This document shows, in pieces, positions 19,865-64,000 of a stretch of DNA of 64,000 nt; the first letter of the stretch is position 1; each line of letters starts with the position of its first letter. The stretch lies in the IMG/VR virus record IMGVR_UViG_3300027985_000412, positions 3,310-67,309 of that record; one strand, written 5' to 3'. The translations under genes and the position numbers were made by a program. Below the pieces are notes generated by a model. The model was not told where the DNA came from and made no database searches. It saw only the letters and a list, made by a program, of their open reading frames with translations. Source of the stretch: a virus.

Positions 19865-19882
19865 ATTTATTACTTTCCTCCT

Positions 19883-50000: not shown

Positions 50001-50555
50001 ATGGCAAGAAAACTTCTCAAAGACACTTTGGCGGATTATATGGAATATGCAAAATCTGTCAACGTGCATGTAAAGCCCGTCAAAGGTGTTCACAGTGGCG
50101 CAAAGGGCAGACCGTATGAAATGGCGGTCAAAGTGGCAATTACTCCCAATTCTAAAGCTGCTGGCGTTGCCAAAGCTGGAAGAATTGACCATCGTGCGGG
50201 CGGTATCCGCTACGAAATCAAAACAGGATGCGGTGAAATCTGCCGTATCAATCCTGAGACAGGCGAAATGTCAAAGCCTTTTGGCGGTGCGGATTATGTC
50301 ATATACTGCCCATTCTTCAACCTGAATGAAGCTGTAGAGACTCAATCCTACGTAGTACCAACAGCCGAAATGGTGGCTCTACTGGAAGAACTTGGATTGG
50401 TTAGAACAAAAGCCTCAACGAGTAGCTACAGAAATGGCGTGGCGGTCATCGACAGAATAACAATTCAGAGCTTCAGCAACAGCAGGAAAAAAGAGGAAGC
50501 CCTGTATGCGGCACTTGACCAATATCCGAAGCTCGGTGAGTGGTTGGAACAATAA
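50001..50555 (+). CDS. PD-(D/E)XK restriction-endonuclease-fold protein (putative)
   Basis: GRPYE...GRID...YEIKTG...DYVIY pattern; AGGAGG RBS. Confidence 0.6.
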   Translation: MARKLLKDTLADYMEYAKSVNVHVKPVKGVHSGAKGRPYEMAVKVAITPNSKAAGVAKAGRIDHRAGGIRYEIKTGCGEICRINPETGEMSKPFGGADYVIYCPFFNLNEAVETQSYVVPTAEMVALLEELGLVRTKASTSSYRNGVAVIDRITIQSFSNSRKKEEALYAALDQYPKLGEWLEQ

Positions 50556-50610
50556 GGAAGGAAGGGCAGGGGAGAAATCCCCTGCCACCTACAAAATAGG
50601 AGGAAGAAAA

Positions 50611-50766
50611 ATGGAAACTAAAAAATGGAATGTAACCTACATGAGCACATATGGATTCCACGTTACAATAACAGGAGTTGAAGCGCTGAACAGTACGAGC
50701 GCAGGAGAGAAAGTCCAAAGAACAGCTAAGGACTGGAAGCGTAGAATTAAAGTGGAACAGGCGTAA
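50611..50766 (+). CDS. small hypothetical protein
   Basis: AGGAGG RBS before ATG 50611; stop codon lies in a hairpin loop. Confidence 0.6.
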   Translation: METKKWNVTYMSTYGFHVTITGVEALNSTSAGEKVQRTAKDWKRRIKVEQA

Positions 50767-50790
50767 GCCTGTTCCAAGAAAGGATTTACC

Positions 50791-51090
50791 ATGTTAAACT
50801 ATTCATCAAAAGAAAACGAGCAGCTACTATTTGAGGGATTGAAAATTTATTTCCAATTCCAGACAGCAATGGCATCCTGTCGTGAGCGTATATTTAACGA
50901 CGAATGGCCGCATGAGTTAGGCGTTACACCAAACGAGTTAAATATTCAAATGGCGCGTTTACTAGGTAATGAGGACGAAGTCCGCGATTTCTATTTCTAC
51001 TGTGACAATACACTTCTAAAGGGAATGTATTATCCATCACAAACGAAGATACGCGAGAAGTTGAAGGAAATTCGTTCCATGGAAATATAA
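50791..51090 (+). CDS. hypothetical protein
   Basis: 99 aa, AAGGA RBS, followed by a hairpin. Confidence 0.6.
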   Translation: MLNYSSKENEQLLFEGLKIYFQFQTAMASCRERIFNDEWPHELGVTPNELNIQMARLLGNEDEVRDFYFYCDNTLLKGMYYPSQTKIREKLKEIRSMEI

Positions 51091-51201
51091 GGGAATTTAT
51101 TCCCTTATTAATCTTAGACGTGGCACGTCTAAGGTTTTCCCCTTGACTATCTTATCACTATGTGATAAGATAGTACTATCAAGAGAGGGAGGAATACCAA
51201 A

Positions 51202-51375
51202 ATGGCAACAGTCAAAACTTCGAACCTTAAGGATTACACGCGTGAGGAAGCGTACGCGATGAGTCAGACCGTCGGCAAGGCGTGGGATGAGTTCATGGCT
51301 CGCGAAGCTGAGAAGGCTGAGGAAGCCTCAGCTGAGCCGGAACCCGACGCCGAAGAGGTGGAAGGGGACGAGTAG
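51202..51375 (+). CDS. 57-aa acidic protein (absent from ORF track)
   Basis: GGAGG RBS; MATVKTSNLKDY...EPEPDAEEVEGDE. Confidence 0.7.
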   Translation: MATVKTSNLKDYTREEAYAMSQTVGKAWDEFMAREAEKAEEASAEPEPDAEEVEGDE

Positions 51376-51377
51376 GA

Positions 51378-51461
51378 ATGAAAGAGAAGCTGAAAGCTAT
51401 AGTGCTGTTAGAGCTTGCTATACTTCTGCCACTCGCCTTCGTGATACACTTCTTCTTTTAG
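51378..51461 (+). CDS. 27-aa hydrophobic peptide (absent from ORF track)
   Basis: MKEKLKAIVLLELAILLPLAFVIHFFF; starts 2 bp after the previous stop and ends at a hairpin. Confidence 0.5.
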   Translation: MKEKLKAIVLLELAILLPLAFVIHFFF

Positions 51462-51571
51462 GGGATTTTCCCCTAAAAGAAGTCTTAGACGTAATACGTC
51501 TAAGATAATCACTTGTATTTTCTTATCGTTTGGGTTATAATAATAATACAGTAAGGAAAGGAGTTGCACAA

Positions 51572-51730
51572 ATGAGAAGTTTAGTTCGTTGCTTGCGCGC
51601 TAAATCAGAGGATGAATTTTCAGAAGGTTTCAAAGTCATAGACAAATTTTTGTCGATAATTGGTTATGGAGCTATCACAGTATTTGTTCTCTATCTCGGC
51701 GTCCACGGTGTTTTTTACCTCCTTAAGTAA
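51572..51730 (+). CDS. small membrane protein
   Basis: AAGGAG RBS; C-terminal hydrophobic segment. Confidence 0.6.
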   Translation: MRSLVRCLRAKSEDEFSEGFKVIDKFLSIIGYGAITVFVLYLGVHGVFYLLK

Positions 51731-52170
51731 AAACCAAACCTTTCTATCTGTTACGGACGGACTTGCCACCGTCCGTATTTTTATTTTATTCTTAGACGTA
51801 CAACGTCTAGGAAAAAAGGTTGTTTTTTTTTGTCGAATCGCATATAATACATATATAAGGTAACAAACATACATAAATAATATCCAATACAGTAGACAAA
51901 AACCAAAAGTAACGAATGTAACCAATGTAACAAGAATGTAAAAATGGAAAAGTATTCTGTCACATTATTTCCCATATTCTGACATCAGTGAAAGAGGGAG
52001 ATTTGTCAGTGCAATAGAGAAAGGATACTTTGATTCTACCGATAGAAGTCAAAATGAGCTACGTTTTAAGAAATGAGCTACGATTAGACGTGTAACGTCT
52101 AAAAAAATTTCTTGACTTTTATTAATGTCAATGATATAATTATAACATCAAAAGGAAGGGGAATAAAACA

Positions 52171-52413
52171 ATGGCAAGAAGAGGATTAAAAATTGATTTT
52201 ATGCATAAAAGTATCGAAGTATCTCATGCATACTCATTGAGGGCATCCAAATTTAATAGTTTAGAATATATTGAATTAGGATGTATAAAATTAGACTTTC
52301 CAGATTTTGAAGTTTATGTTCTTCCTAAACAAAAAAAGAAAAAGAAAAAGAAGAAACCTTCTGTAGATGAGGTTATCGCAAAGATTTTGGCAGAAAAGGA
52401 GAATACAATATAA
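52171..52413 (+). CDS. hypothetical protein with poly-Lys tract
   Basis: Cassette promoter and RBS; KQKKKKKKKK. Confidence 0.65.
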   Translation: MARRGLKIDFMHKSIEVSHAYSLRASKFNSLEYIELGCIKLDFPDFEVYVLPKQKKKKKKKKPSVDEVIAKILAEKENTI

Positions 52414-52616
52414 TGAAAGAATGGCAAGTTGTACTTTTGGGATCTTTAATTGCTTTAGGAACAGTTGCAGGATTATTCGGTCTTTGCTTCTTAATTCCCG
52501 AAGGAGTTGGGCGCGACTCAATGATGCGTTTAGTCTCTGGATTTAGTTTCCCAATCGGTCTTGGCGCATATGCATTGACAAAATGGATACAGTATAGAAA
52601 ATCTTGTGACGATTAG
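52413..52616 (+). CDS. small membrane protein
   Basis: AAGGAG RBS; two hydrophobic segments. Confidence 0.6.
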   Translation: MKEWQVVLLGSLIALGTVAGLFGLCFLIPEGVGRDSMMRLVSGFSFPIGLGAYALTKWIQYRKSCDD

Positions 52617-52717
52617 TCACAAGAATAGTGTTAGACGTATCACGTCTAAGAAAACTTCTTGACTTTTTTGTATTATATGGTATAATAGTATTATCAAGTG
52701 AAAGGAAATAAAAAGAA

Positions 52718-53263
52718 ATGAAAGCAACAGGAATAGTAAGAAGAATTGATGAACTCGGGCGCGTGGTCATTCCGAAGGAGATTCGCAGAACACTTCGGAT
52801 AAGAGAAGGAGATCCTTTGGAAATCTATACCGACAGAGAAGGAGGAGTCATCTTCCGGAAGTATTCTCCAGTCGGTGAGTTGAACAATCTTGCTAAAGAC
52901 ATGGCAAGCACTCTTGCGTCAACCACAGATTTGATGATACTCGTCACCGATATGGATTCGATTCTCGCAACGTCAGGACGTGCGCGGCGTCTTGATGGGA
53001 TGCCCCTCTCGCCCATCATGATCGAGATGATTCAAAAGAGATATCCGACATGTGCGGGCCGCGAAGGTTTTGAACAGATATTTAACGTTGATACGTTAAG
53101 TGGTTTCCTCTCTCAATTCTACGTTCAACCCATCTTGGTTGATGGTCAGCCGGTTGGTGGATTATGGTTTCTCTCCACCAAAGAAGAAGGAGTGATTCCG
53201 GCAGAGGTCAAAGAAATTGCAAAATTCGCCGTTGCGTTTCTTGAGAAACAGTTGAACAATTAA
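52718..53263 (+). CDS. spoVT: SpoVT (AbrB-type DNA-binding domain plus GAF-like domain)
   Basis: MKATGIVRRIDELGRVVIPKEIRRTLRIREGDPLEIYTDREGGVIFRKYSP; 181 aa ending AVAFLEKQL. Confidence 0.9.
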   Translation: MKATGIVRRIDELGRVVIPKEIRRTLRIREGDPLEIYTDREGGVIFRKYSPVGELNNLAKDMASTLASTTDLMILVTDMDSILATSGRARRLDGMPLSPIMIEMIQKRYPTCAGREGFEQIFNVDTLSGFLSQFYVQPILVDGQPVGGLWFLSTKEEGVIPAEVKEIAKFAVAFLEKQLNN

Positions 53264-53374
53264 GGGGATTAATTCCCCTTAGTAAGTTAGACGTGTTACG
53301 TCTAATATTTTCTCTTGATATTTTTCTCGCAATCGGTTATAATAATACTATCAAGTAGAAAAGGAGTTAAAACA

Positions 53375-53869
53375 ATGTCAGTCATGCACTCGATTAGCAA
53401 TTGCAAGAAGATGTTAAATCATGGAATTGACCGCGCGGTGTATTACTCTCCAAAGTATGATATGATTATCAAGAAGGAAAAGCCCGGCGGTGGAGAAAGT
53501 GGAAAAGGTTGTGAAGCTCAATTCATGTATGAAAAGTCTTTTTATGAACAGCTTAGACCTGCGGAACGTATTTTCTTTCCAGTTATTGACTTTTGCGCCT
53601 ACAAAGGGAGAACCGTTTGTCTTATGCATCGTTGCACCTGCTTAACTGACTTACCACAATATCAAGAGCTTAACAGCGCATTATCATTCGGCGGTTGGCG
53701 TTATTGGACAGTATCAGAATTAAGACTTATCTTTCTTACTTTGGGATTGAATACTCGTTTTGTTAAATACTTCCATAATGTCATCACTCGCTTTGGACTT
53801 CATGACTTACATCTTGGAAATCTTGGAGTTTATAATAACCATTTGGTAATTCTTGACGCGGGATTTTAA
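53375..53869 (+). CDS. minimal protein-kinase-like protein (paralogue 1)
   Basis: HGIDRAVY, IIKK, catalytic loop HDLHLGNLG, ILDAG. Confidence 0.7.
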   Translation: MSVMHSISNCKKMLNHGIDRAVYYSPKYDMIIKKEKPGGGESGKGCEAQFMYEKSFYEQLRPAERIFFPVIDFCAYKGRTVCLMHRCTCLTDLPQYQELNSALSFGGWRYWTVSELRLIFLTLGLNTRFVKYFHNVITRFGLHDLHLGNLGVYNNHLVILDAGF

Positions 53870-53970
53870 TCCCGCAGTCATAGAGTTAGACGTATAACGT
53901 CTAAAAAAAAATATTGACTTTTACCAATTAATTGGATATAATAATACTATCAAGTGAAAGGGGAGAGATA

Positions 53971-54453
53971 ATGTCATTAATCCAATCAATTCCAAAGTTT
54001 AGAAAGAAACTTGGATACGGAATCTCAAGAGAAGCGTTTTACTCTAGAAAATATCAATGTGTAATTAAACGCTCTAGGCCGGATGGTTGTGGACATCGTC
54101 CAATTCGTTCCCAGATGTTAGCAGAGATTAACCTCTTTGAACGTATGGAAGAATCTGAAAGAGAATTCTTTCCAGTTATTGAAGTTCTTGAATACAAAGA
54201 GGAAAAATTGATTGCTATGCATCTAATTAAACCAATCTCTTCTAATAAAGATTGGGAACAACTTTTCAATTCTTTGTGGAGATTGCAAACAGAAGAAAAG
54301 TATAACACTTTGTGCGCTCAAATTGGTCTTGACTGTTCATATAATAAGGCTTTTTGGACATTTGTTCGTAAATATCATATTGATGATTTACACACTGCAA
54401 ATGTTGGCGTTTATAATAATCATCTTGCGATTATCGATGCCGGATTAAATTAA
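53971..54453 (+). CDS. minimal protein-kinase-like protein (paralogue 2)
   Basis: LGYGISREAF, VIKR, DDLHTANVG, IIDAG. Confidence 0.7.
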   Translation: MSLIQSIPKFRKKLGYGISREAFYSRKYQCVIKRSRPDGCGHRPIRSQMLAEINLFERMEESEREFFPVIEVLEYKEEKLIAMHLIKPISSNKDWEQLFNSLWRLQTEEKYNTLCAQIGLDCSYNKAFWTFVRKYHIDDLHTANVGVYNNHLAIIDAGLN

Positions 54454-54551
54454 TCCGGTCTTTTTTAATTAGACGTTGAACGTCTAAGATTGTCTATTGC
54501 ATTTTCTATTCTCATATAGTATAATAAGAGTATCAAAAGGAGGGTAAAAAG

Positions 54552-54839
54552 ATGATTTGGTTTAATGGAGAAATTACACCATTGGCACCGACGTTAGTTA
54601 TTGGAAAGATTCATTCTGTATCTGGTCAAAAAGAAGTTGTCTGTCGTTGGAATGGCTCAGATTTTGTGCGCGCTGGTCAAGAACTATTTGTGATTGAATG
54701 GCGTCCGTTCTCAATGGACAATGATAGTCTGTTTGCCTTCTGCTTACAGCTCATAGCAGAAAAGCACTCGCCCAATCTTTCAACAGAAAAAAGAATGGAC
54801 GCGGCGTATAAATTAATGGAGGACTTGGTAATCGAATGA
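54552..54839 (+). CDS. hypothetical protein
   Basis: Cassette promoter and AGGAGG RBS. Confidence 0.65.
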   Translation: MIWFNGEITPLAPTLVIGKIHSVSGQKEVVCRWNGSDFVRAGQELFVIEWRPFSMDNDSLFAFCLQLIAEKHSPNLSTEKRMDAAYKLMEDLVIE

Positions 54840-54937
54840 TTACCAAACCATATTAGACGTTATACGTCTAATTATAACTATTGACTTTCATTATAGATGT
54901 GTTATAATAAGAATATCAAATGAAGGGAGTACAGAAA

Positions 54938-55210
54938 ATGTACGTTAAAGTTGAAACAGATTGTGCCTTTGCAGGATGCAATGAAAAACATTTGGTCGAA
55001 GTACCGGATGACATGAGCGAAGAGGAACTCAATGCAATGGTGAATGAGTATGTGCAAGCTGACATTACTCCGGAAGGTAGCTATGAGATTCTTACCGAAG
55101 AAGAAGCAGAAGAGCTTGCAGAAGATGGTTATGAATGTGAATCTTATGGTTTCGAAGTCGAACCGGATTCTGACCCGAATGAAGTTCCAGGCACAGGGGA
55201 TGAGGATTAA
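54938..55210 (+). CDS. highly acidic small protein
   Basis: 90 aa with about 30 Asp/Glu, 2 Lys and 0 Arg. Confidence 0.7.
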   Translation: MYVKVETDCAFAGCNEKHLVEVPDDMSEEELNAMVNEYVQADITPEGSYEILTEEEAEELAEDGYECESYGFEVEPDSDPNEVPGTGDED

Positions 55211-55310
55211 TCATCCCCTTTCCTAATTAGACGTAATACGTCTAAGATATTCACTTGCATTTTATATCTATCTATAGTATAATACTATTATCAAGGAAGG
55301 GAGAAAAACA

Positions 55311-55709
55311 ATGAAAAAGATTTGTGATACTTATATTGACTTGGAGGCAGGAGTCTTTAACAAGAATGGTAGATTACTCTATGTTATTAAAGCGCATGTG
55401 AGTGAGAAGCTAAAGTATTGTGACGAAAGAGATGTTGACCTGATGAATGACTTCAAAGCACTTGACAAAGCTATCCAAAAATGTTACAATGGTTTCTCTG
55501 TATTCTCTGATAGCGTCTTTTCGGCGGATGGATGTGGATTCAGCTCTTATTCTGGAGTAAGTAAACGTCATTCAGTTAAGATTATTGGTTTGCGCTCTAT
55601 TGCAAAACAAAACACAACTTTCTCAATGCAAGATATAATGCAAAGAATGTGTTATCTTGATATAACAGAATACGCCAAAGATAATGCGATAGCATTATTT
55701 AACAAATAG
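55311..55709 (+). CDS. hypothetical protein
   Basis: Cassette promoter and RBS. Confidence 0.65.
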   Translation: MKKICDTYIDLEAGVFNKNGRLLYVIKAHVSEKLKYCDERDVDLMNDFKALDKAIQKCYNGFSVFSDSVFSADGCGFSSYSGVSKRHSVKIIGLRSIAKQNTTFSMQDIMQRMCYLDITEYAKDNAIALFNK

Positions 55710-55717
55710 GAGGGAAT

Positions 55718-55954
55718 ATGAAACTCTATATTGTTTGGGAAGATAATCATGGTGACGTTTCGTGGTGGACAGAAAAACATCTTGCTATCCGAGAAATGAG
55801 ACGCATTATAAAATATGGATGGTGCAAGAGAGAACGCGCGCAGATTATCAAAGAGTATCGCGAAGAAAATCCAAAAAAGAGATTCCGTTGGTGGGAAGCG
55901 TTTAGCGATTGCGTTGGTTATCGCGAAGTGGAACTAAATAAAAGTTGGAATTAA
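55718..55954 (+). CDS. hypothetical Trp-rich protein
   Basis: AGGAGG RBS; second gene of its cassette. Confidence 0.6.
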   Translation: MKLYIVWEDNHGDVSWWTEKHLAIREMRRIIKYGWCKRERAQIIKEYREENPKKRFRWWEAFSDCVGYREVELNKSWN

Positions 55955-56053
55955 TCCAACTTTCATACTTAGACGTTTGACGTCTAACAATCAAAATTGA
56001 CTTTTTAATTAATTTGTGTTATAGTAATAATAGAAAATGAAAGGGGAAAGAAA

Positions 56054-56233
56054 ATGGTTAATTTAACAAAGAGAAAGAAAACTCCGGTTGAGCAGATTAG
56101 AAATGAGGTTGCCAAACTGGGCGGTTCAAGCGTCCTTTCGGACACTTCCTTGCTAACAATAGTTGGGGGACTTGAGAAAACTTATCCTGTGGTGATTGAG
56201 TTTGGCTCGAAATATGCCCTCGAAGAGGTGTGA
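56054..56233 (+). CDS. 59-aa hypothetical protein (absent from ORF track)
   Basis: Cassette promoter and AAGGGG RBS; MVNLTKRKKTPVEQ...ALEEV. Confidence 0.65.
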   Translation: MVNLTKRKKTPVEQIRNEVAKLGGSSVLSDTSLLTIVGGLEKTYPVVIEFGSKYALEEV

Positions 56234-56333
56234 GCCACCTCTTCCCTAGTTAGACGTTCAACGTCTAAGTTTTCTCCTTGACTTTTATTATTAATTATAG
56301 TATACTAATAATAATGAAAGGGAGGGTTATAAA

Positions 56334-56540
56334 ATGAAAAAGTTTATTGCAAGAAATTTTCCCTGTGTGATTGCAGGACTTCTCACCTTAGTTCTAACTG
56401 CCGCATTTATGGCGATAGCATCCTTAATCACAGCCTGCTCTGATGGAGCTATTGGTATCATCTGCTTTAGTGCTGCGTTCGCTTGTACAATTCCCGCGTA
56501 TACATGGATGGAAAGAATCTCCAAGAAATATTACTCTTAA
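56334..56540 (+). CDS. small membrane protein
   Basis: Two hydrophobic segments; cassette promoter. Confidence 0.65.
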   Translation: MKKFIARNFPCVIAGLLTLVLTAAFMAIASLITACSDGAIGIICFSAAFACTIPAYTWMERISKKYYS

Positions 56541-56647
56541 CGTACCATAGGTACGTTATAGTTAGACGTATTACGTCTAAGAAAATCTCTTGACGTTCTT
56601 TTTCTTGTATGATATACTAAGTACATAAAGTGAAGGGAGTACAAAAC

Positions 56648-57112
56648 ATGAACACAAAAACAATCTACTTTGATATGGACGGAACAATCGCAAATTTGTA
56701 TGGTGTAAGAAATTGGTTGCCGCGTTTGCGGTCAGAGGATGCTACACCATATCTGGAAGCTGAACCCATGTGCGATATGGTAAGAGTTATTGAATTGCTT
56801 GAAGCTCTCTGCGCTCAAGGGTATCGAATCGGGATTATAAGCTGGCTATCTATGGGAGCTTCAAAAGCCTATAAGAAAGAAGTCACGCGCAACAAAAAGC
56901 GATGGCTCAACCAAGAAATGCCAATCGAATTTGACGAGATGCATTTCATACAATATGGTACACCCAAACACCGCGTTGCGCGGGATAAATTCGGAATCAT
57001 CATTGATGACAGCTCCGAAGTGAGGGCTGGATGGGAAAAGCGTAATAACCGCATAGCGGTTGACCCGGCAGAAATGCCAATAGAAAATTTCCTCCTTTCC
57101 CTTCTATCTTGA
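56648..57112 (+). CDS. HAD-superfamily 5'(3')-deoxyribonucleotidase-like protein
   Basis: IYFDMDGTIAN (motif I), K-W-L and IIIDD (motif IV). Confidence 0.8.
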   Translation: MNTKTIYFDMDGTIANLYGVRNWLPRLRSEDATPYLEAEPMCDMVRVIELLEALCAQGYRIGIISWLSMGASKAYKKEVTRNKKRWLNQEMPIEFDEMHFIQYGTPKHRVARDKFGIIIDDSSEVRAGWEKRNNRIAVDPAEMPIENFLLSLLS

Positions 57113-57237
57113 TAGAGGTCGAGTGGCAATAATTGTCACTCGGCTTCTAGGATTAGACGTCATACGTCTAACTATTTCTGTTGACACTATTAATAGGGTA
57201 TGATATAATAAAGACAATAAAAGAAAGGAAAACTAAA

Positions 57238-57510
57238 ATGAAAGCGAGGAATATTATGGGTAGTTATCGAGTAAAGAGAGGATACAGTAACGCGGCAGTT
57301 GGTCTTGGATGTTTGGGAATCATTATGTTGGTTCTTCTGATGTGCGCTGTATCTGCTTTCTTGGGCGGACTGATCGTCTATCTTCTGTGGAACGCACTTG
57401 TTCCGGTTCTGTTTGGCGGTGTCGTCATAACATACTGGACTGCGGTTCTTATCGGTCTTGCTCTTGGATTCATCGGCAGTATTTTCACGGTTCGAGTAAA
57501 GGGGAGTTGA
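57238..57510 (+). CDS. membrane protein
   Basis: Long hydrophobic segments; LWNALVPVLFG...ITYW. Confidence 0.65.
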   Translation: MKARNIMGSYRVKRGYSNAAVGLGCLGIIMLVLLMCAVSAFLGGLIVYLLWNALVPVLFGGVVITYWTAVLIGLALGFIGSIFTVRVKGS

Positions 57511-57609
57511 TTCCCCTTTCTTAGTTAGACGTAGCACGTCTAATCTTTCTTCTTGACTTTTATTATTATTGTGATATAATAAAGATAATAAAAGAAAGGG
57601 GAAAACAAA

Positions 57610-58020
57610 ATGTTCACAGGTATTTTAGTAGGTATCGGTATCTCTCAGTTAATCTGTTTCTTGGTTTTCGTGCTTACTCATGAGGATGAGATGAAGGCAA
57701 TGCTTGCAGGCGGAGGAATCTTTCTGTTGCCTGTTAAATGGCTCTTTATGCTAATGAGAGCTATTTGGAAAGCATATGTTAATCACACATATACTGTCTA
57801 TAAGGTCTGCGGCGTCAACGAAAACTTTTGGAATCAGTATGTCAGATTGAAAAAGAAATGGTTTGACAATTACTACCACGAAGGAGAAAATGATTACTAT
57901 ATCGAGGAGTATTTGGAACCGAAAAACAAACCACATAATTATGACCCTTTACGGAAACTTCCCGGCAATGGATGGTGGAATCAGGAATGGGTTAATAAGA
58001 ATCTATTAAAAGAGTCGTGA
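57610..58020 (+). CDS. membrane-anchored hypothetical protein
   Basis: Two N-terminal hydrophobic segments; cassette promoter. Confidence 0.65.
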   Translation: MFTGILVGIGISQLICFLVFVLTHEDEMKAMLAGGGIFLLPVKWLFMLMRAIWKAYVNHTYTVYKVCGVNENFWNQYVRLKKKWFDNYYHEGENDYYIEEYLEPKNKPHNYDPLRKLPGNGWWNQEWVNKNLLKES

Positions 58021-58142
58021 GACTCTTTTTTAGTTAGACGTAATACGTCTAAGAAAAAGTCTTGACTTCTATGCTCAATATGTTATAATGATATTGTGGT
58101 TGAGGGAAATCAACCAACAAAAAAAAATTAGGAGGCCTTACG

Positions 58143-58511
58143 ATGGCAGACAAGAAAATGACACAGAGGGAATTTTTTACAGCGGTGAAGGAAGCAAATC
58201 TTTCCAAGGAAATGACAGATTTTGCCGAAGCGGCAATTGCGGCTCTCGATAAGAGGAACGCGGCAAGACAGGCACAGCCGAGCAAAAAGGAAGTCGAGAA
58301 CGAACCGATCAAAGCGGCTCTCGCGGCAATCGTCACGGGCGCAGGAAAAGCCATGATTGCAAAGGATATCACAGCGGCATACAACGCGGCGAACGCGGAT
58401 GCCCAGATTACCACGCAGAAAGTTTCTGCTCTCCTGCATCAGCTTGTGGACGCTGGCACGCTCAAGAAGGGCGAACCTGTCAAAAAGACGCTGACCTATA
58501 TCGGCGCATAG
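58143..58511 (+). CDS. winged-helix DNA-binding protein (paralogue 1)
   Basis: C-terminal AKDI...ITTQKVSALLHQLVDAGTLKK...TY; similar to 62830-63198. Confidence 0.65.
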   Translation: MADKKMTQREFFTAVKEANLSKEMTDFAEAAIAALDKRNAARQAQPSKKEVENEPIKAALAAIVTGAGKAMIAKDITAAYNAANADAQITTQKVSALLHQLVDAGTLKKGEPVKKTLTYIGA

Positions 58512-58602
58512 TGAAAGGGGATTTATCCCCTTTTTTTAGTTAGACGTTATACGTCTAATAATTAGTATTGACTTCTCTTATCTAATATGTTATAGTTATA
58601 TT

Positions 58603-58900
58603 GTCGAGAGGGAAAAGAGTACGGTGCGCAACGTATCCACATTGGCCGTGTGGCCTTCCGAATAGGTTATCCCCATGTGCCGAATAAGACTGAGGGCGGT
58701 TCGATACCGTTACTGGCTAACGGATGGTGAGTTCAACCGATGAAACCTATGGGCCGAAGAGTTATGCGCCCCGCAGAATGCAAGGCTCCGCGTTAGACGC
58801 TAAGTGACTTAGCCTTGGAATACGAAAAGGCAACCTCCGAGAGGGAGCCAGGAGGAATAGGCTCCAGCTATATAAGGTATCTCCATTTGAGATACCTTAT
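58603..58900 (+). ncRNA. candidate structured non-coding RNA cassette
   Basis: Lies between a promoter (58568-58596) and a terminator hairpin (58872-58900); GC-rich, several hairpins, no credible ORF. Confidence 0.55.
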
Positions 58901-58990
58901 TTACTTAGACGTGATACGTCTAAGATTCTCTCTTTACAATCTCTTAACATTATGTTATACTATCTATAATGAAAGAAGGAGGAAAAGGGA

Positions 58991-59464
58991 ATGGAAAATA
59001 TTTGGATTTTTATAGTCGCTCAATTAATCAATGTTGTGTTAGGAACAATGCGATCGGTACTGACAATTCGTTCCAGTCAAAATGTGGCAGCTATCATTAA
59101 TGCTGTGAGCTTCACCTTTTATGCAGGTGTTGTTAAGATGATAACTGGTCAAGAAATGTGGCTCGTTTTAGTAGTAACATTTATTACCAATATCATCGGC
59201 GTTTATGTTGCTATGTGGATTGTGAAGAAATTTAGTAAAGACAAGATATGGAAAATCACAATTACGACAGAGTTTGAAGATGTTAAAGATTGGATTTGTG
59301 AAGGATTGGAAAAATATAATCTTGGTTATTCTTCAATCGAAATTGAATCGGGTTATGTGATTGATGCATATTCATACACGCAAAACGAAAGTTTATTGAT
59401 TAAGGAAGTAATTTCCAAACATAAAGTAAAATACTTCGTTACTGAAATGAATAAGACTTTATAA
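58991..59464 (+). CDS. UPF0316/DUF5698-like membrane protein
   Basis: IFIVAQLINVVLGTMRSVLTIR, three TM segments and a soluble C-terminal domain. Confidence 0.65.
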   Translation: MENIWIFIVAQLINVVLGTMRSVLTIRSSQNVAAIINAVSFTFYAGVVKMITGQEMWLVLVVTFITNIIGVYVAMWIVKKFSKDKIWKITITTEFEDVKDWICEGLEKYNLGYSSIEIESGYVIDAYSYTQNESLLIKEVISKHKVKYFVTEMNKTL

Positions 59465-59571
59465 GTCTTATTCAATTTCAATTATTAGACGTAGTACGTC
59501 TAAGAAAATAATTTGACTTTTTAAAATTTTTCTGATATAATAAATTTAGAAAGTGAAGAAAGGAGAAAAAA

Positions 59572-59940
59572 ATGGCAGTTTCCAAAAAGTCCCTCAACGA
59601 AAAATTCAAAATGAAGGTGTTGGAAATGGTTTCCAATTTCCTCAAGGATGAAGGTGAGGATATTGTCCGCACAAAAAGCGGTGAAATTGCTTTTCCTTTT
59701 GTGAATGAAGCAGGGGATGATGAATGGATGAAAATTACATTTAGTGTACCTGCTGGCTCGCGTGATGGTGAACCGTTCGACGGTTACGGCGAAGCTGAAA
59801 GCTATGCAATGAGTATAGCAAGCAAAAAGGAAAAAGCGGCCACAGCGGCGGCGGCTAAGGAAAAGAAAATCCTTAAAGACACACAACAAAGAGCCAAGAA
59901 AGCGGAGAATCTGCGGAAGGCTCAAGAGGGTGGGGAGTAA
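59572..59940 (+). CDS. hypothetical protein with basic coiled-coil tail
   Basis: Cassette promoter and AAGGAG RBS. Confidence 0.7.
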   Translation: MAVSKKSLNEKFKMKVLEMVSNFLKDEGEDIVRTKSGEIAFPFVNEAGDDEWMKITFSVPAGSRDGEPFDGYGEAESYAMSIASKKEKAATAAAAKEKKILKDTQQRAKKAENLRKAQEGGE

Positions 59941-60044
59941 TCCCCATCCTTTTTTTTATTAGACGTGATACGTCTAAGAAAAAGCGTTGACTTCCTTTAT
60001 ATTGTATGTTATACTTAGTCTATCAAATGAAGGGAACATGAAAA

Positions 60045-60833
60045 ATGGATAAACGAAAAAACTATTATTTGGTACTTGATACCGAAACGGCGAACGGTCT
60101 GGATGACCCATTGGTTTATGATTGCGGTTTTGCAGTCGTGGATAAAAAAGGCAATGTGTATGAGACACATAGCTATATTATCTATGAGATTTACCGCGGA
60201 GAGCGTGAGCTGATGCAATCGGCGTACTATGCGGCAAAAATTCCCATGTATGAGGAACAAATCGCGGCAGGGCTGAGAAAAATTGTCAAATATATTACGC
60301 TTCGTAAAATCATTCGTGAAGTATGCGAACGCTGGAATATTAAGGCAATCATCGCCCACAATATGAGCTTTGACTATCGAGCTACCAGTAAAACCCAGCG
60401 ATTTCTCACGAGTTCAAAGTACAGGTATTTCTTTCCATATGGTATTCCTGTGTGGTGTACTAAGTGTATGGCACAAGATACCATAGCTAAGCAAAAGTCA
60501 TATATTGCCTATTGCGAAGAAAGAGGATATATGTATAATGGACGCCCGCGAGTGACAGCAGAAATCCTCTTCCGATATTTGTCAGGACAGCATGATTTTG
60601 AGGAAGAGCATACAGGGCTTGCCGATGTGCTGATTGAAAAGGTAATTTTTACCCAGTGTATGAGACAGCACAAACCTATGAGGAAATCTCCTTATAAAGA
60701 AAAAACTTATCCTTATGCTCAATATGAGGCTGATGGTTGGGAAATGACAGAAGAATTGTTAAGAAAAGGAAAGGGAACTTCTTTACTGGATGAACTTGTC
60801 AGACAAAGATGTTTAAAGGAAGTGTGCGTATAA
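60045..60833 (+). CDS. DEDDh 3'-5' exonuclease
   Basis: LVLDTET (ExoI), AHNMSFD (ExoII), EEHTGLADV (ExoIII). Confidence 0.85.
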   Translation: MDKRKNYYLVLDTETANGLDDPLVYDCGFAVVDKKGNVYETHSYIIYEIYRGERELMQSAYYAAKIPMYEEQIAAGLRKIVKYITLRKIIREVCERWNIKAIIAHNMSFDYRATSKTQRFLTSSKYRYFFPYGIPVWCTKCMAQDTIAKQKSYIAYCEERGYMYNGRPRVTAEILFRYLSGQHDFEEEHTGLADVLIEKVIFTQCMRQHKPMRKSPYKEKTYPYAQYEADGWEMTEELLRKGKGTSLLDELVRQRCLKEVCV

Positions 60834-60942
60834 CGCACATTTTCTTTTTATTTTAAATTAGACGTGTTACGTCTAAGAATAATTGTTGACTTATTATTAT
60901 TATTATGTTACAATGATTATAGTAAAAGAAAGGAGTAAAACA

Positions 60943-61206
60943 ATGGCAGTCCACAAAGACTTTAACAAATTACTTCAAGAAAGAATAGCATATCAAGATA
61001 ATGAGAAGAAAGTTAATTCTTTATATAAAGAATTGGCTGGATACGCTGATAGGATTGAAGATATTCGTGTTGAACTATTCAATAATCCTATTATCAATGG
61101 AGAAGAAGATAGAGATGCCTTGAGCGACCTTCTATTTAAACTCCAATCTCAATTGAGATATGATACGAAAGAGTTTCTTGAATGCATGGTCATTCTCGAT
61201 GACTAA
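60943..61206 (+). CDS. hypothetical coiled-coil protein
   Basis: AAGGAG RBS before ATG 60943. Confidence 0.65.
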   Translation: MAVHKDFNKLLQERIAYQDNEKKVNSLYKELAGYADRIEDIRVELFNNPIINGEEDRDALSDLLFKLQSQLRYDTKEFLECMVILDD

Positions 61207-61305
61207 GCGGTCTCCGCTTAGGGGATTAGACGTAATACGTCTAATCTTTCGACTTGACTTATCCATTTATTATGATATAATAGAATTAAAGAAAGGGGAA
61301 TTAAA

Positions 61306-61575
61306 ATGAATACAAATTGCGTTCATTGTACTATTCAAAATTGTTCTCAACATGGAGGAGATTTTGAAACTAGAGTTTGTAAAGTAACAGGAAAATTTTG
61401 TTACTACGATAGTGTATGGCAAACTCATGAAGAGAAATGTGAAACCTACAAACCTATTAATGATCCAATTATATATCGAGAAAATGAGATTAATAGACGT
61501 ATTGCAAACATGCAAAGGATTATTAGAGATTTTGAAGAAGAAAAATTGGCATTAAGAGACCCTAACTTTATATAA
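61306..61575 (+). CDS. Cys-rich hypothetical protein
   Basis: CVHC...C...C...C...C pattern; cassette promoter. Confidence 0.65.
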   Translation: MNTNCVHCTIQNCSQHGGDFETRVCKVTGKFCYYDSVWQTHEEKCETYKPINDPIIYRENEINRRIANMQRIIRDFEEEKLALRDPNFI

Positions 61576-61686
61576 CACGTATTTATACGTGTTATATCCT
61601 TAGACGTAATACGTCTAAAAATATTGATTGACTTTCTATCTAGTATGCGATATAATAAGACTATCGAAAGGAGAATAGAATATTTG

Positions 61687-62073
61687 ATGGAATGTATTTA
61701 CAATGGACGGAAGCACAAAATTTTTTCAAGGGTAAAGATACCCAAAGGTACTGGAAAAAGAAGCCAAAAAGGATTCCTGTATTTTATCCGAATTGGCGAA
61801 GCGACAAACCGCAAATTTAAAATCGGCACAGCTAACGATATTTTGCGGAGAATGACAGAACACGCTGGATATTACAAAGAGCCTATTTACATTTTATGGG
61901 TGTCACCTGTATACTCAAAGTACACCACCTTGAGAATTGAAGATAGGCAAAAAGAGGAATGGATAGCGGCTGAGCCTTGGGAATATCTGGAGAATGACCG
62001 CTTCATAATTCCTCTAGGAGTGGAAGAAATAACCATTCGAGTGCGGCGTGAATATGCGATACTTCTGGAGTAA
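61687..62073 (+). CDS. GIY-YIG superfamily (T5orf172-like) protein
   Basis: GFLYFI...FKIGTANDILRRMTEH...IE. Confidence 0.65.
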   Translation: MECIYNGRKHKIFSRVKIPKGTGKRSQKGFLYFIRIGEATNRKFKIGTANDILRRMTEHAGYYKEPIYILWVSPVYSKYTTLRIEDRQKEEWIAAEPWEYLENDRFIIPLGVEEITIRVRREYAILLE

Positions 62074-62123
62074 TCCAGAAGTTTCCTTATTAGACGTAGT
62101 ACGTCTAAGTCTTAAAGAGAGAA

Positions 62124-62267
62124 TTAATCTCCCTTTTTTCTTTCCTTGACTACATCGGTAATTGCCTTTATAAATGTACCAATGACGCCAATCCATGCAA
62201 GAACAACCACTGCACTTGGAAAAGAATACTGTGCTGCCAGAATTAGGATAATGATATAGAGTAACAT
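62124..62267 (-). CDS. small membrane protein (inverted cassette)
   Basis: MLLYIIILILAAQ...; AAGGA RBS; stop codon in a hairpin loop. Confidence 0.55.
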   Translation of the reverse strand: MLLYIIILILAAQYSFPSAVVVLAWIGVIGTFIKAITDVVKERKKGD

Positions 62268-62268
62268 T

Positions 62269-62502
62269 TTACTTTCCTTCCCGTGGGAGTTTATCATCCC
62301 ACATATAGAGTTTAATACGAACCACTTCTTCATTCCCATCTTGTACAAAATCTACTCCGCCGAAATTGTAAAGATTTCCTTCACAGTCCATATCTTCAAA
62401 CTTAATCGGCGCGAGTTCGTCTAATTGCATTAAGACGTGAACCAATTCTTGTTCTAAATACTTAAGTATTTTTTGTCTGTCTGCTTTCGGTTTAAGTGGC
62501 AT
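62269..62502 (-). CDS. hypothetical protein (inverted cassette)
   Basis: AAGGAG RBS; - strand promoter at 62556-62528. Confidence 0.65.
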   Translation of the reverse strand: MPLKPKADRQKILKYLEQELVHVLMQLDELAPIKFEDMDCEGNLYNFGGVDFVQDGNEEVVRIKLYMWDDKLPREGK

Positions 62503-62780
62503 CTTTGTTCTCCTTTCATTTGTCTATATTATATCAATAGTTAAAAGAAAAGTCAAGTCTAAATGTTAGACGTACAACGTCTAAGATTTCCAAATTTGTC
62601 AAATTTCTTCTCCCCACAGAATTTATTCCCCGTGTCAAATTTTCATCAAACCGAAAAAGAGCTACGATTGTCAAATTTTAATAGAGCTGGAAATGAGCTG
62701 CGTTTTTTTAATTTTATTGGTAAGACCTGCGACCTGGCAAATTTTGCTGTCACAGAAATTTCTGGAAGTGCGCAGACAAC

Positions 62781-62829: not shown

Positions 62830-63198
62830 TTACTCTGCTACGGGGAGAGTATAACCCTTCTGAGCACCCTTGCCCTTAATCTTGACTTCGACCTGCACAG
62901 CCTTACCTTCGTCGACCAGCTTGCGAAGCAGCGCAGAAGCCTTCTGTACCGAAATCTCAGCCGCCGGAGCCACATCAGAAGCCGTCACCGGTTCAGTCGT
63001 CAGCATACCAGCCAGCGTCTCCATAATCGGCGCATTCTCCACATCTTTCTTGGACGGAGTATTGCGTCTCTTCTCATTTACCGCATCAAGCTTTGCAACT
63101 TCTGCCTGAGCGAATTCAGCCACATCTGCGGTCACACCTTCCATCGCCAGCACTGCCGTGAGGAACTCTCTCTTTGTCATCTTTTCTTTGTTAGCCAT
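62830..63198 (-). CDS. winged-helix DNA-binding protein (paralogue 2)
   Basis: VTASDVAPAAEISVQKASALLRKLVDEGKAVQVEV...KGYTL is a typical wHTH pattern. Confidence 0.7.
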   Translation of the reverse strand: MANKEKMTKREFLTAVLAMEGVTADVAEFAQAEVAKLDAVNEKRRNTPSKKDVENAPIMETLAGMLTTEPVTASDVAPAAEISVQKASALLRKLVDEGKAVQVEVKIKGKGAQKGYTLPVAE

Positions 63199-63719
63199 TT
63201 GTTTGTACTTCCTTTCAAAATAAGTTTTTTATATCGAGCGAGAGTTACTTCCTCTCTCACTTTCTATCTTTATTATATCAGAGTTTCTGAAACTTTTCAA
63301 ATTTTCAGCTCCTCGATTTTTCTTCGGGCGGCATCTAACGGTAAACGTGTGCCGCCCTATACATACAGGAGGTAAATCCTTGTAGAAATAGAGATTGGTA
63401 GAGTCAATGCTTGCGACTCCCAGCCCTTCAACCATCTTAACGCGGGAACGAAAATGGCAGTTTTCGTAGCCTAACCTCTCTCTCACTTTCTATATATAGT
63501 ATATCATGATTTTAAGAAAATTGCAAATTTTTATTAGCCTTATTCATCACAAATGTGATGGCGCGCTAGTGGTTCGGCAATTTAATTTTGACTCGTTGAT
63601 TTCTGTGGGATGACTGTTTTATAATTTGATTTTGTGTGAAAGTTTGGCGCAGACACATTCTACCTGAGTCCACGATTTTTACCGTAACTATCTGAGCTGG
63701 GAGAGTAAGACTCTCGCCA

Positions 63720-64000
63720 TGTCTACGTAGTTAGTATACGTAATTAGTCTACGTAGAATTATACGTATTATTATACTCCCTATCCGTATACGTTTTACCT
63801 ATACGTTTTACTTATACATTTATCTACACTTATATCTATACGTACTACGTATACTATTTATATACTCCCTGTACGTTTAATTATTCGTATACATAGATAT
63901 ATACATATACTTATACGTAGAACTTATAAGTATATTTTTTAAAGTAAAATAATAAGTAATACGTATACGTATTACTTAGAAGTATATTTATAAGATTTAT
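63720..64000. repeat. AT-rich low-complexity tract with about a dozen TACGT motifs
   Basis: Repeated (TA)TACGT(A/T) and TATAC units; no ORF. Confidence 0.7.

Follow-up and report, generated by a model that had tools for sequence, protein, structure and literature searches.

A palindrome in helical phase with early phage promoters and its phyletic link to F5, a protein of predicted nuclease fold

Small enzymes of the PD-(D/E)xK fold read palindromic DNA as dimers. A nuclease may moreover act on its own gene: I-TevI represses the promoter from which it is expressed by way of a partial site (PMC2988022). We find a palindrome array and a gene for a protein of predicted PD-(D/E)xK fold, F5, in the DNA of an uncultured large phage (the window, a stretch of 64,000 nucleotides).

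The window palindrome has 19 bases (8+3+8), with arms TTAGACGT-N3-ACGTCTAA. Searching the whole window for TTAGACGTNNNACGTCTAA with at most two mismatches returned 25 copies spanning 51114-62584, against a chance expectation of 0.03 on average and 1 at most (100 dinucleotide shuffles). Twenty-four are exact, and the lone mismatched copy (51792-51810) ends in G. No extra copy with up to one mismatch occurs in the rest of the 67,309-base record. Read in register, 24 copies stand before sigma-A-type promoters and one is an orphan. The first-pass annotation had placed the palindrome 9 bp from the -35 box in all promoter-linked copies except the first, with varying gap sequence and with the inverted cassette conforming, and each of these points was borne out: the gap is 9 bp in 23 of the 24, including the inverted copy 62566 with its - strand TTGACT/TATAAT promoter, and 10 bp in copy 51114. 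The 22 remaining + strand copies run palindrome, 9 bp, TTGACT-like hexamer, TATAAT-like hexamer. The core promoters are near consensus in both boxes, with deviating -35 boxes TTGTAT, TTGTTT, TTGATA, TTGCAT (twice) and TTTACA, and the promoter scan gives five of them a 16-nt spacer. The palindromes lie directly past the terminator of the preceding gene. Some score as terminator-like themselves, with an 8-9 bp stem followed by T-rich DNA. In the list below, palindromes come from the motif search and register reading, "scan" marks units also in the promoter scan, the gap is 9 bp unless stated, and the hexamers are the -35 and -10 boxes.

51114-51171, + strand: unit 1, palindrome 51114-51132, 10-bp gap, TTGACT, TAAGAT; scan
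51485-51541, + strand: unit 2, TTGTAT, TATAAT
51792-51848, + strand: unit 3, one-mismatch palindrome (final G), TTGTTT, TATAAT; the next ~230 nt lack an ORF
52084-52140, + strand: unit 4, TTGACT, TATAAT; scan
52631-52686, + strand: unit 5, TTGACT, 16-nt spacer, TATAAT; scan; drives a SpoVT/AbrB-like gene
53287-53343, + strand: unit 6, TTGATA, TATAAT; scan
53886-53942, + strand: unit 7, TTGACT, TATAAT; scan
54469-54525, + strand: unit 8, TTGCAT, TATAAT
54853-54908, + strand: unit 9, TTGACT, 16-nt spacer, TATAAT; scan
55227-55283, + strand: unit 10, TTGCAT, TATAAT
55969-56025, + strand: unit 11, TTGACT, TATAGT; scan
56250-56306, + strand: unit 12, TTGACT, TATACT; scan
56562-56618, + strand: unit 13, TTGACG, TATACT; scan
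57153-57209, + strand: unit 14, TTGACA, TATAAT; scan
57525-57580, + strand: unit 15, TTGACT, 16-nt spacer, TATAAT; scan
58034-58089, + strand: unit 16, TTGACT, 16-nt spacer, TATAAT; scan; drives winged-helix paralogue B (58143-58511)
58540-58596, + strand: unit 17, TTGACT, TATAGT; the next ~290 nt lack an ORF
58905-58961, + strand: unit 18, TTTACA, TATACT; scan
59485-59541, + strand: unit 19, TTGACT, TATAAT; scan
59959-60015, + strand: unit 20, TTGACT, TATACT; scan; drives an exonuclease-like gene (60045-60833)
60858-60914, + strand: unit 21, TTGACT, TACAAT; scan
61226-61281, + strand: unit 22, TTGACT, 16-nt spacer, TATAAT; scan
61600-61656, + strand: unit 23, TTGACT, TATAAT; scan
62090-62108, no strand: orphan palindrome, promoter-less on both strands, flanked by terminator hairpins of convergent + and - strand genes
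62528-62584, - strand: unit 24, inverted, palindrome 62566-62584, TTGACT 62556-62551, TATAAT 62533-62528; scan; drives - strand genes 62269-62502 and 62124-62267

Across 23 cassettes in register (copies 51114 and 62090 excluded), the arms carry 1.94 bits per position and the -35 box 1.42, compared with 0.45 in the 9-bp gap and 0.20 in the N3 centre, so that conservation is far stronger in the arms than around them; any two gap sequences are on average 0.40 identical. Related array loci, 66 in number, contain 478 exact palindromes versus 49 with one mismatch, and the 16 specified bases hardly vary even among phages whose proteins have drifted to 20-35% identity. Some relatives carry a symmetric variant, TTAGATGT-N3-ACATCTAA, with gaps of 8-10 and 19-20 bp, or a second one, TCGTACGT-N3-ACGTACGA, with gaps of 7-9 bp, and many have no palindrome at all. 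The C:G to T:A variant preserves arm pairing. Given the information content of the arms, the ratio of exact to mismatched copies and the symmetric two-arm variants, the arms are under sequence-specific selection and are no duplication relic, which supports the earlier view that conserved arms around a free N3 fit recognition by a protein. The gene content between palindromes is hypervariable, with 18 of the 29 early-region proteins of the window lacking a homologue in the 66 loci.

One constant 9-bp gap does not imply helical phasing, because copying could also produce it. The family supplies what the window cannot: among 300 promoter-linked copies (promoter score of at least 10/12, taken from 413 unique contexts on 43 related IMG/VR contigs), the gaps fall into classes of 7-10 bp (179 copies), 17-20 bp (66), 27-31 bp (24), 37-41 bp (12) and 48-52 bp (7), and only 12 lie elsewhere. 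The period is about 10.25 bp, with a vector strength of 0.85 versus about 0.2 for 30 random anchors, and 15 contigs contain at least two classes. Since the classes center near 9, 19, 29, 39 and 50 bp, the palindrome stays on a single helix face with respect to the -35 box, which is genuine helical phasing, as the first-pass annotation had supposed.

The same annotation had suggested a dimeric protein as binder, with candidate phage proteins to be tried, and phyletic linkage together with position at the array edge now points to a candidate.

49928-49956, + strand: F5 gene promoter, TTGCAA 49928-49933, 17-nt spacer, TATACT 49951-49956; sequence read and promoter scan
50001-50555, + strand: F5, predicted PD-(D/E)xK restriction-endonuclease-fold protein, 184 aa; alignment, fold prediction, phyletic link and array-edge position

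Of 45 records with at least five palindromes, 43 contain an F5 homologue, both misses being fragments (16% and 19%), as do all 11 array-bearing records whose completeness is 90% or more. None was found in four records with one or two palindromes or in Enterococcus phage H1, and 50 relatives lacking the palindrome (at up to one mismatch) yielded only two marginal matches (E values of 3e-4 and 7e-4). Of 50 unique F5 genes, 41 head the array co-directionally, 8 are divergent at its edge and 1 gives no information, and the first palindrome is a median of 660 nt away. The phyletic linkage shows a functional pair of palindrome and F5, not direct contact of F5 with the DNA, and another gene always co-inherited with the palindrome could have been missed among the nine whole genomes compared gene by gene.

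The AlphaFold2 model of F5 has a mean pLDDT of 85.3. Its VIA-align matches are NhoI (Z 7.4), I-Ssp6803I (6.8), HhaI (6.4), Hjc (5.9) and HinP1I (5.9), as well as MspI and MutH, all at Z-scores of no more than 7.4, a range that VIA-align itself calls middling; the best Foldseek match is likewise NhoI (probability 0.93). In the catalytic motif (E40, D63 and (D/E)-x-K74), D63 and K74 never vary among 45 sequences and E40 is kept in at least 90% of them, which suggests a working nuclease rather than a protein that only regulates. On the F5 protein tree the T-type operator arose three times. The column of S32 has K or L in none of 40 C-type proteins and K, K and L in the three T-type ones, and S32 is a possible specificity residue, its column having been selected post hoc among about 170 and showing L instead of K in one T-type lineage of the three. 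The F5 promoter reads TTGCAA-ttcTTAGACGTatctgt-TATACT in the window, and its spacer includes one half-site TTAGACGT at 49937-49944. Many relatives show this layout too; the half-site occurs in about one-third of the unique upstream regions examined, under a scoring that favored it, and all three T-variant genomes examined have a T-type half-site there, matching their operator type.

We propose, with about an even chance of being right, that the palindrome is an operator through which F5, placed on one face of the helix, acts on RNA polymerase and so switches the early array as a whole; DNA binding by F5, the polymerase contact and the direction of control are all inferred. After infection, host sigma-A RNA polymerase would transcribe F5 from its own promoter, and F5 would bind the palindrome symmetrically, probably as a dimer. 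The dyad would lie upstream of the -35 box on a constant helix face, near -54 in the window phage and near -64, -74, -85 or -95 in relatives, the value of -54 presuming a start site about 7 nt past the -10 box. From there F5 might act on promoter-bound polymerase, most likely via the alpha C-terminal domains that occupy upstream DNA. All of the roughly 24 single-gene early units would then switch together, and the half-site in the F5 promoter would provide autoregulation. Shut-off is perhaps very slightly favored over activation, because the core promoters are already near consensus and an activator is therefore not obviously needed. Simple occlusion fits poorly with palindromes that lie 29-50 bp upstream of the -35 box.

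The predicted nuclease fold with its intact catalytic motif, which the first-pass annotation did not foresee, opens another reading, which we consider clearly less probable yet the most substantial of the alternatives: F5 may be a catalytically active endonuclease or nickase with site specificity that cleaves at the palindromes. By cutting or nicking before each early unit at a set time, it could end the early phase or seed recombination-dependent replication, or else lead to exchange of promoter-gene cassettes between co-infecting relatives, and the half-site in the F5 promoter would serve, like that of I-TevI, as an operator that is not cut. The conserved motif, the nearest folds (restriction and homing endonucleases and Holliday-junction resolvases), the hypervariable genes between palindromes and the I-TevI precedent are in its favor. 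However, a model of cleavage alone leaves helical phasing to the -35 box without a function, and the sites are confined to promoters. Neither C5 nor N6/N4 methyltransferases (PF00145, PF01555) were found in the window record and five complete array-bearing relatives; a double-strand cutter under no restraint would thus make 13-28 cuts in its own genome, without protection by these enzymes.

A host transcription factor as binder of the palindrome, borrowed by the phage or restraining it, is unlikely. The near-invariance of the specified bases despite such diverged phage proteins would fit, and among the matches listed, single copies recur in several genomes of cells, Patescibacteria and Paenarthrobacter among them, a hint that cells too may have proteins of this specificity. 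Yet related phages differ in their operator, which tracks the phage gene F5, and five array-carrying MAGs have no chromosomal site set, their copies being clustered on small contigs except for one single copy, although the binning of a phage contig does not prove the host.

Quite unlikely, too, is a winged-helix family (62830-63198 and 58143-58511) as reader instead of F5.

62830-63198, - strand: winged-helix paralogue A, 122 aa, with palindrome-less promoters

Its model is of high confidence (pLDDT 93.1), profile and fold matches are to MarR, SmtB, PadR and CodY-type DNA-binding domains, and it occurs in 43 of 50 records searched, with two or three copies per phage inside or adjoining arrays, one of them under palindrome-less promoters. 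Paralogue A was the first candidate binder and was judged unlikely, since the family and its recognition helix (S-T/V-Q-K-A-S-A-L-L/C-R) also occur in palindrome-less relatives. Members exist in records with zero palindromes (e.g., L215, L218, L219, L227, L232, L234, and L259), distant ones in Enterococcus phage H1, which has no palindrome, and the helix is the same in T-variant phages.

We think it very unlikely that the palindrome works as a nucleic acid hairpin, either as a back-up terminator or insulator in read-through RNA or as a cruciform that absorbs negative supercoils behind each strong promoter. The location past terminators, the terminator-like copies and the pairing preserved in the C:G to T:A variant would suit such an element, but a structure need not hold one sequence over hundreds of copies, the gaps are mostly A-rich without T-runs, termination needs no fixed, phased distance to the -35 box, and the half-site in the F5 promoter cannot form a hairpin. 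Finally, that the constant spacing is a mere relic of tandem duplication of one palindrome-plus-promoter cassette, which would indeed yield a constant 9-bp gap within one genome, is already disfavored by the family comparison and scarcely credible, given gaps that differ while the arms are identical, a motif conserved over 43 contigs with gaps quantised by 10 bp, and unrelated genes between the copies.

In conclusion, the first-pass interpretation as a whole is partly supported, and the palindrome is passed on throughout a phage family in company with F5, its candidate reader.

Twenty-five copies of the palindrome TTAGACGT-N3-ACGTCTAA lie in the window, 24 of them exact and one, at 51792, ending in G; the mean expected from shuffles is 0.03. 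All fall inside 51114-62584, and the rest of the 67,309-base record holds no further copy. The features that bear on their function are as follows.

45232-47043: large terminase gene
up to 49598, - strand: structural genes
49900-62600, + strand: array of short units, mostly one gene each
50001-50555, + strand: gene for a 184-residue protein of predicted nuclease fold (the nuclease-fold protein), first gene of the + strand block
51114: first palindrome, 10 bp from its -35 box
52718-53263, + strand: SpoVT/AbrB-type early regulator
58143-58511, + strand: winged-helix gene B
62090: palindrome without a promoter, between convergent terminators
62566: inverted palindrome, 9 bp ahead of a - strand promoter
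62830-63198, - strand: winged-helix gene A, driven by palindrome-less promoters

The remaining 22 copies, on the + strand, stand 9 bp ahead of a TTGACT-like box that is followed after 16-17 nt by a TATAAT-like box. When the copies were printed in register, the count in the first-pass annotation (a 9-bp gap at 23 of 24 promoters, 10 bp at the first, the inverted cassette included) proved right. The N3 centre, which the annotation described as free, holds 0.20 bits per position over 23 cassettes in register (arms, 1.94; -35 box, 1.42; gap, 0.45), yet it is not fully free: T stands beside the promoter-proximal arm in 15 of 23 cassettes and A beside the distal arm in 11 of 23, a bias by which the palindrome extends partly to 9+1+9. 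The core boxes are mostly TTGACT or TTGACA with a TATAAT-like partner and a frequent TG extension, and a promoter scan returned 71 promoter-like sites (37.9 +/- 6.0 in shuffles) with the palindrome-linked promoters among its best rows. Most palindromes are preceded by a hairpin with a T-run and followed by the promoter.

The record, of which the window covers bases 3310-67309, is 57% complete (CheckV) and has a GC content of about 35%. It carries a large terminase with 35-46% identity to those of Geobacillus virus E3, Alicyclobacillus phage KKP_3916, Enterococcus phages VRE9_4/H1, and SPbeta-like phages. This sequence kinship points to a large siphophage of Firmicutes. No cultured phage matched the region by megablast; in the exonuclease comparison the nearest was Enterococcus phage H1 (44% identity). 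When 66 related array loci were compared, 18 of the 29 early-region proteins had no homologue. No Rfam family at the gathering threshold and no tRNA by ARAGORN was found. The host can be placed only by MAG labels, and the early SpoVT/AbrB-type gene, with a MazE-like N-terminal domain and SpoVT_C (Pfam E values of 1.8e-16 and 2.2e-11), suggests a spore former.

The array and its borders hold several further peculiarities. Six-frame translation leaves ORF-less stretches after the promoters at 58540 (58597-58890, + strand, about 290 nt) and 51792 (51849-52083, + strand, about 230 nt), which may be non-coding transcripts. The former is GC rich; its transcript (58601-58890) shows no folding beyond that of shuffled sequences (z = +1.1), Rfam gave no match, and an E-value scan of 58500-59000 gave chance-level rows only. 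The neighbouring early genes 53375-53869 and 53971-54453 are paralogues that share a 67-nt stretch of 75% identity and the protein end ...LGVYNNHL.I.DAG, and one of them has a weak PHROG match to a family of unknown function. At 63229-63531 (- strand) there are two copies of a 54-nt promoter-plus-leader (63252-63305 and 63478-63531; 76% identity). Both point toward the - strand and lack the palindrome; after the upstream one come about 200 nt with no convincing gene, and then winged-helix gene A. Words resembling TGTCAAATTT occur as three or four repeats beyond the inverted cassette (62600-62750), and AAATGAGCTACG at 52052, 52071, 62655, and 62691 marks both borders of the main array. The contig end (63700-64000) is dense in TACGTA/TATACGT repeats, including TATACGT-ACT-ACGTATA (63838-63854), which has the ACGT-N3-ACGT core in common with the operator and differs in the outer arms; these repeats may represent an origin, the end of the genome, or a second type of operator.

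The exact palindrome recurs in 79 stretches of IMG/VR contigs. Among the matches listed it also forms clusters on small contigs in several MAGs from gut and rumen that bear the label Clostridia, Eubacteriales, or Acutalibacteraceae. In 66 array loci 478 copies are exact, 49 carry a single mismatch, for the most part at the arm base nearest the centre, and 13 carry two or three; one shuffle gave none. From the IMG/VR loci we took 413 unique palindrome contexts and kept the 300 with a downstream promoter scoring at least 10 of 12.

Table. Gap between palindrome and -35 box in the 300 promoter-linked copies
7-10 bp: 179 copies
17-20 bp: 66 copies
27-31 bp: 24 copies
37-41 bp: 12 copies
48-52 bp: 7 copies
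other gaps: 12 copies

The five classes together hold 288 of the 300 sites, which is positional evidence only. Vector strength peaks at 0.85 for a period of 10.25 bp, compared with about 0.2 for 30 random anchors, and in 15 of 43 contigs at least two classes occur within the same contig. In the longer gaps the filling DNA is A/T rich and resembles UP elements. The first-pass annotation had read strict helical phasing into the 9-bp gap, which a single constant spacing cannot prove; it is the comparison with relatives that turns the constant spacing of one genome into real phasing evidence, and the family-wide gap classes are, as far as sequence can tell, helical phasing in the proper sense. If transcription is assumed to begin about 7 nt past the -10 box, the dyad positions would be near -54, -64, -74, -85, and -95.

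Relatives with altered sites were located through a conserved exonuclease-like gene (alignment A2, 80 loci). At many of these loci there is no palindrome whatever at the canonical place; at others it holds one of the following.

Table. Palindrome variants at the canonical place (L numbers denote loci of relatives)
TTAGATGT-N3-ACATCTAA (T variant): L217, L243, L251, L261; also L207
TCGTACGT-N3-ACGTACGA: L248, L252, L253
TTAGACGT-N4-ACGTCTAA: L284
TTAGACC-N5-GGTCTAA: L225
TTGTTAA-N4-TTAACAA (unrelated palindrome): L220, L223, L226; also L211

The changes are symmetric in both arms, which fits a two-fold symmetric reader; hairpin pairing would equally be preserved. On the branch with the unrelated TTGTTAA-N4-TTAACAA (L211, L220, L223, and L226) the palindrome stands 19-20 bp ahead of the -35 boxes, in some cases 31 or 41 bp ahead, and the nuclease-fold gene is missing; this may be a parallel operator system with another reader. 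Two further loci (L205 and L206, of records G010 and G029) have a relaxed inner arm base (TTAGACG-N5-CGTCTAA) together with a second palindrome family, GTCA(C/T)-N5-(G/A)TGAC, which precedes other early promoters by about 20 bp.

The candidate reader emerged from a gene-by-gene comparison of nine whole records, of which four bear the canonical site, two the T variant, and three no site. Six protein families were specific to the palindrome-bearing genomes. Five are ordinary genes of metabolism or the membrane with no part in reading DNA (a P-loop kinase, an NrdG-like activase, a glutaredoxin, a membrane protein, and a phosphatase); the sixth is the nuclease-fold protein. A profile built from 45 members of its family (A3) found the gene in 43 of 45 records with at least five sites, both misses being fragments (16% and 19%), and in every one of the 11 array-bearing records with a completeness of 90% or more. 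It was found in none of four records with one or two sites and is absent from phage H1. Among 50 relatives with site-less whole records (at most one mismatch allowed) there were just two marginal matches (E values of 3e-4 and 7e-4), one of them in a TTAGACC-type phage. Position tells the same way: 41 of 50 unique genes head the array codirectionally, eight lie on its border in the divergent orientation, and for one the position carries no information; the median distance to the first palindrome is 660 nt. In one related record (G032, 28445-28535) and at loci L017 and L083, two or three tandem palindromes 32-37 bp apart directly follow the gene at the head of the array.

The promoter of the gene itself (TTGCAA, ttcTTAGACGTatctgt, TATACT in the window) carries one half-site inside its spacer. 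In many relatives a half-site likewise lies in the spacer or overlaps the -35 box, in roughly a third of unique upstream regions by a scoring that favoured finding it, and three T-variant genomes have TTAGATG or CATCTAA there instead.

Pfam, PHROG, and PDB sequence searches returned nothing significant for the protein, and a search of 5.8 billion proteins found 35 unnamed metagenomic relatives and no others. Its structural model (pLDDT, 85.3) is closest in VIA-align to PD-(D/E)xK nucleases: NhoI (Z, 7.4), I-Ssp6803I (6.8), HhaI (6.4), Hjc (5.9), and HinP1I (5.9). Nucleases of this fold make up most of the top 30 rows, with Z values below 8 that are middling by the tool's own scale, and Foldseek also lists NhoI first (probability, 0.93; E value of only 1e-2). 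The catalytic E...D...(D/E)-x-K motif is kept across 45 sequences, with D63 and K74 invariant, E40 present in at least 90%, and an acidic residue as the majority residue two before K74. A homodimer prediction scored 0.00, without controls, and weighs neither way. The T-type operator is spread over three separate lineages of the protein tree. The column of S32 holds K or L in none of 40 C-type proteins and K, K, and L in three T-type proteins; since this column was found after the fact, it is only suggestive that S32 is a specificity residue, for which K or L would be chemically sensible in reading T instead of C.

Other candidates for the reader fared worse. The winged-helix family (110-130 residues, helical at the N terminus and with the winged helix at the C terminus; model pLDDT, 93.1, with likeness to MarR-, SmtB-, and PadR-type domains) was ranked lower because palindrome-less relatives have it too and share its recognition helix; nor does this helix change in T-variant phages. 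The family was found in 43 of 50 records searched, with two to five copies per phage across the whole phage group, palindrome or none; protein A had no match among cultured phages by tblastn at 1e-3. In relatives, as at loci L205 and L207, a palindrome-linked promoter is often followed about 90 nt downstream by a palindrome-less promoter and then by a winged-helix gene. The SpoVT/AbrB-like protein was dropped as the binder since it is present in just 5 of 66 array loci, and a host regulon was rejected after five MAGs showed no chromosomal sites. Among the matches listed, single exact 19-bp palindromes occur in many Patescibacteria genomes, with several sites each in Giovannonibacteria, Nealsonbacteria, and Wolfebacteria, and likewise in many Paenarthrobacter/Arthrobacter genomes (L084-L163), a recurrence more regular than would be expected by chance alone.

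The palindrome is thus most likely the operator of the nuclease-fold protein, a reading that, like our whole analysis, is drawn from sequence. Phasing over five helical turns with A/T-rich DNA between is what would be expected of a protein that meets RNA polymerase's upstream contacts, as the nuclease-fold protein would do from the palindrome, by the alpha-CTD contact logic of class I CAP sites and phi29 p4. At a promoter with a good -35 box p4 reportedly represses through alpha-CTD contact (Monsalve et al., 1996 and 1997). As the core promoters are already near consensus, we lean toward a coordinated shut-off of the early units, with activation as the alternative, and the gene for the nuclease-fold protein would be autoregulated via the half-site in its own promoter. 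In E. coli, CRP/CAP binds class I sites near -61.5, -72.5, -82.5, and -92.5 and acts through the alpha-CTD. The present sites resemble these in being two-fold symmetric, upstream of the -35 box (24 units here), and about one helical turn apart. They differ in that the core boxes are near consensus, unlike those of typical activator-dependent promoters, which are too weak without their activator, that the commonest position (-54) has no CAP counterpart, and that the candidate protein has a predicted nuclease fold and not the CRP fold. Tens of copies of one site over a phage genome are also known from the stoperators of cluster A mycobacteriophages and the C1 operators of P1, repressor sites that lack symmetry, stand in no fixed relation to the -35 box, and are recognized by temperate-phage repressors of the helix-turn-helix type.

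As described for phi29, p4 is a phage-encoded dimer that binds inverted repeats upstream of sigma-A promoters in a Firmicutes phage, repressing early promoters and activating a late one (PMC3100819). Its fold is one of its own, and it acts in concert with p6. Its site, as given there, is CTTTTT-15 bp-AAAATG, present four times within one region, whereas here an 8+3+8 palindrome occurs at about 25 sites, one per gene.

The main rival is that the nuclease-fold protein may truly cut or nick at the palindromes; the further rivals are a winged-helix reader, a host factor, a role as a hairpin, and a relic of duplication. In favour of cutting, the protein retains its catalytic residues, hypervariable genes lie between the sites (the 18 of 29 proteins without homologues), and there is a precedent among T4 intron homing endonucleases that act as autorepressors, in the site-specific phage nuclease I-TevI, which, as described, also represses its own promoter by binding without cutting at an overlapping partial copy of its target (PMC2988022), much as a half-site lies in the spacer here. 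Helical phasing, however, would serve no purpose in such a model. Moreover, neither C5 (PF00145) nor N6/N4 (PF01555) methyltransferases were found in this record, 57% complete as it is, or in five complete array-bearing relatives, so that a cutter left unrestrained would break up the early region of its own genome. I-TevI, for its part, belongs to the GIY-YIG enzymes and has only one homing site, in genomes lacking it, whereas the candidate, of probable PD-(D/E)xK fold, belongs to phages that carry 13-28 full sites themselves, all ahead of promoters. Type II restriction endonucleases and PD-(D/E)xK homing endonucleases such as NhoI, HhaI, HinP1I, MspI, and I-Ssp6803I share with the candidate the catalytic motif, the small size, and probably the fold and a palindromic target; the candidate differs in having no sequence-level family match, in that no partner methyltransferase of the C5 or N6/N4 kind was found, and in having its sites in its own genome, phased at promoters.

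The cassettes have a parallel in T4-type phages, where PeSLs (an early promoter plus a stem-loop), which are repeated and composite, are described as flanking small, highly variable early genes and as recombination substrates without a dedicated sequence-specific protein (PMC2839356, PMC4122927). Each variable gene in the window is likewise preceded by a composite cassette of terminator hairpin, palindrome, and promoter, with the difference that the additional palindrome is invariant, promoter phased, and tied to one gene. Phage H1 has a syntenic early array that is PeSL-like, with the -35 box inside terminator loops, and has neither the palindrome nor the nuclease-fold gene. At 8500-21500 of H1 (L204) the -35 box TTGACA sits in the loop of the preceding terminator hairpin (AAGGGG-TTGACAA-CCCCTT), and five palindromes resembling Rex boxes (TTGTGAA-N4-TTCACAA) also occur in this phage, one of them immediately ahead of a distant homologue of the winged-helix family.

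The two readings might be combined, a view that we consider rather improbable when taken as a whole. A catalytically intact protein of restriction-endonuclease fold would then be the master switch of the early program, docking on a single helix face ahead of each of about 25 promoters, touching the polymerase, and perhaps making a timed nick or cut, with operator and protein having coevolved into at least three specificities (C-type, T-type, and TCGTACGT-type). Cutting would couple shut-off to DNA processing or to cassette exchange between coinfecting relatives.

By phage kinship the nearest known system is that of SPbeta, to whose terminase that of the window is distantly similar; in this large Firmicutes siphophage the master repressor MrpR/YopR is described as binding a repeated 15-bp element, SPBRE, at about ten early promoters (PMC10516654). 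We found a conserved element in five of seven SPBRE-bearing upstream regions (yonP, yonT, yopM, yopV, and yorE; not yonX or aimR), which we infer, without confirmation, to be SPBRE. Its likeness to the palindrome was rejected, as it overlaps the spacer and -10 region, is nonpalindromic, and differs in sequence. MrpR has a tyrosine-recombinase fold, and a search for tyrosine recombinases (PF00589) found no match in this record or five complete relatives. A lysogeny-repressor role like that of MrpR is unlikely, given that this search found no tyrosine integrase.

A literature search, with subscription journals and supplementary files outside its scope, found no description of the palindrome or the protein, only primer matches to the arm 8-mer, and nothing on the timing of host-takeover genes in this phage family. 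If the pairing of operator and protein holds, it would be a rare instance of a nuclease fold controlling about 25 promoters at once, and the family would offer a compact orthogonal operator/regulator set for Gram-positive sigma-A promoters, complete with a natural spacing series (9, 19, 29, 39, and 50 bp) and natural specificity variants. For large virulent Firmicutes phages, the timing of hypervariable host-takeover genes would thereby become testable.
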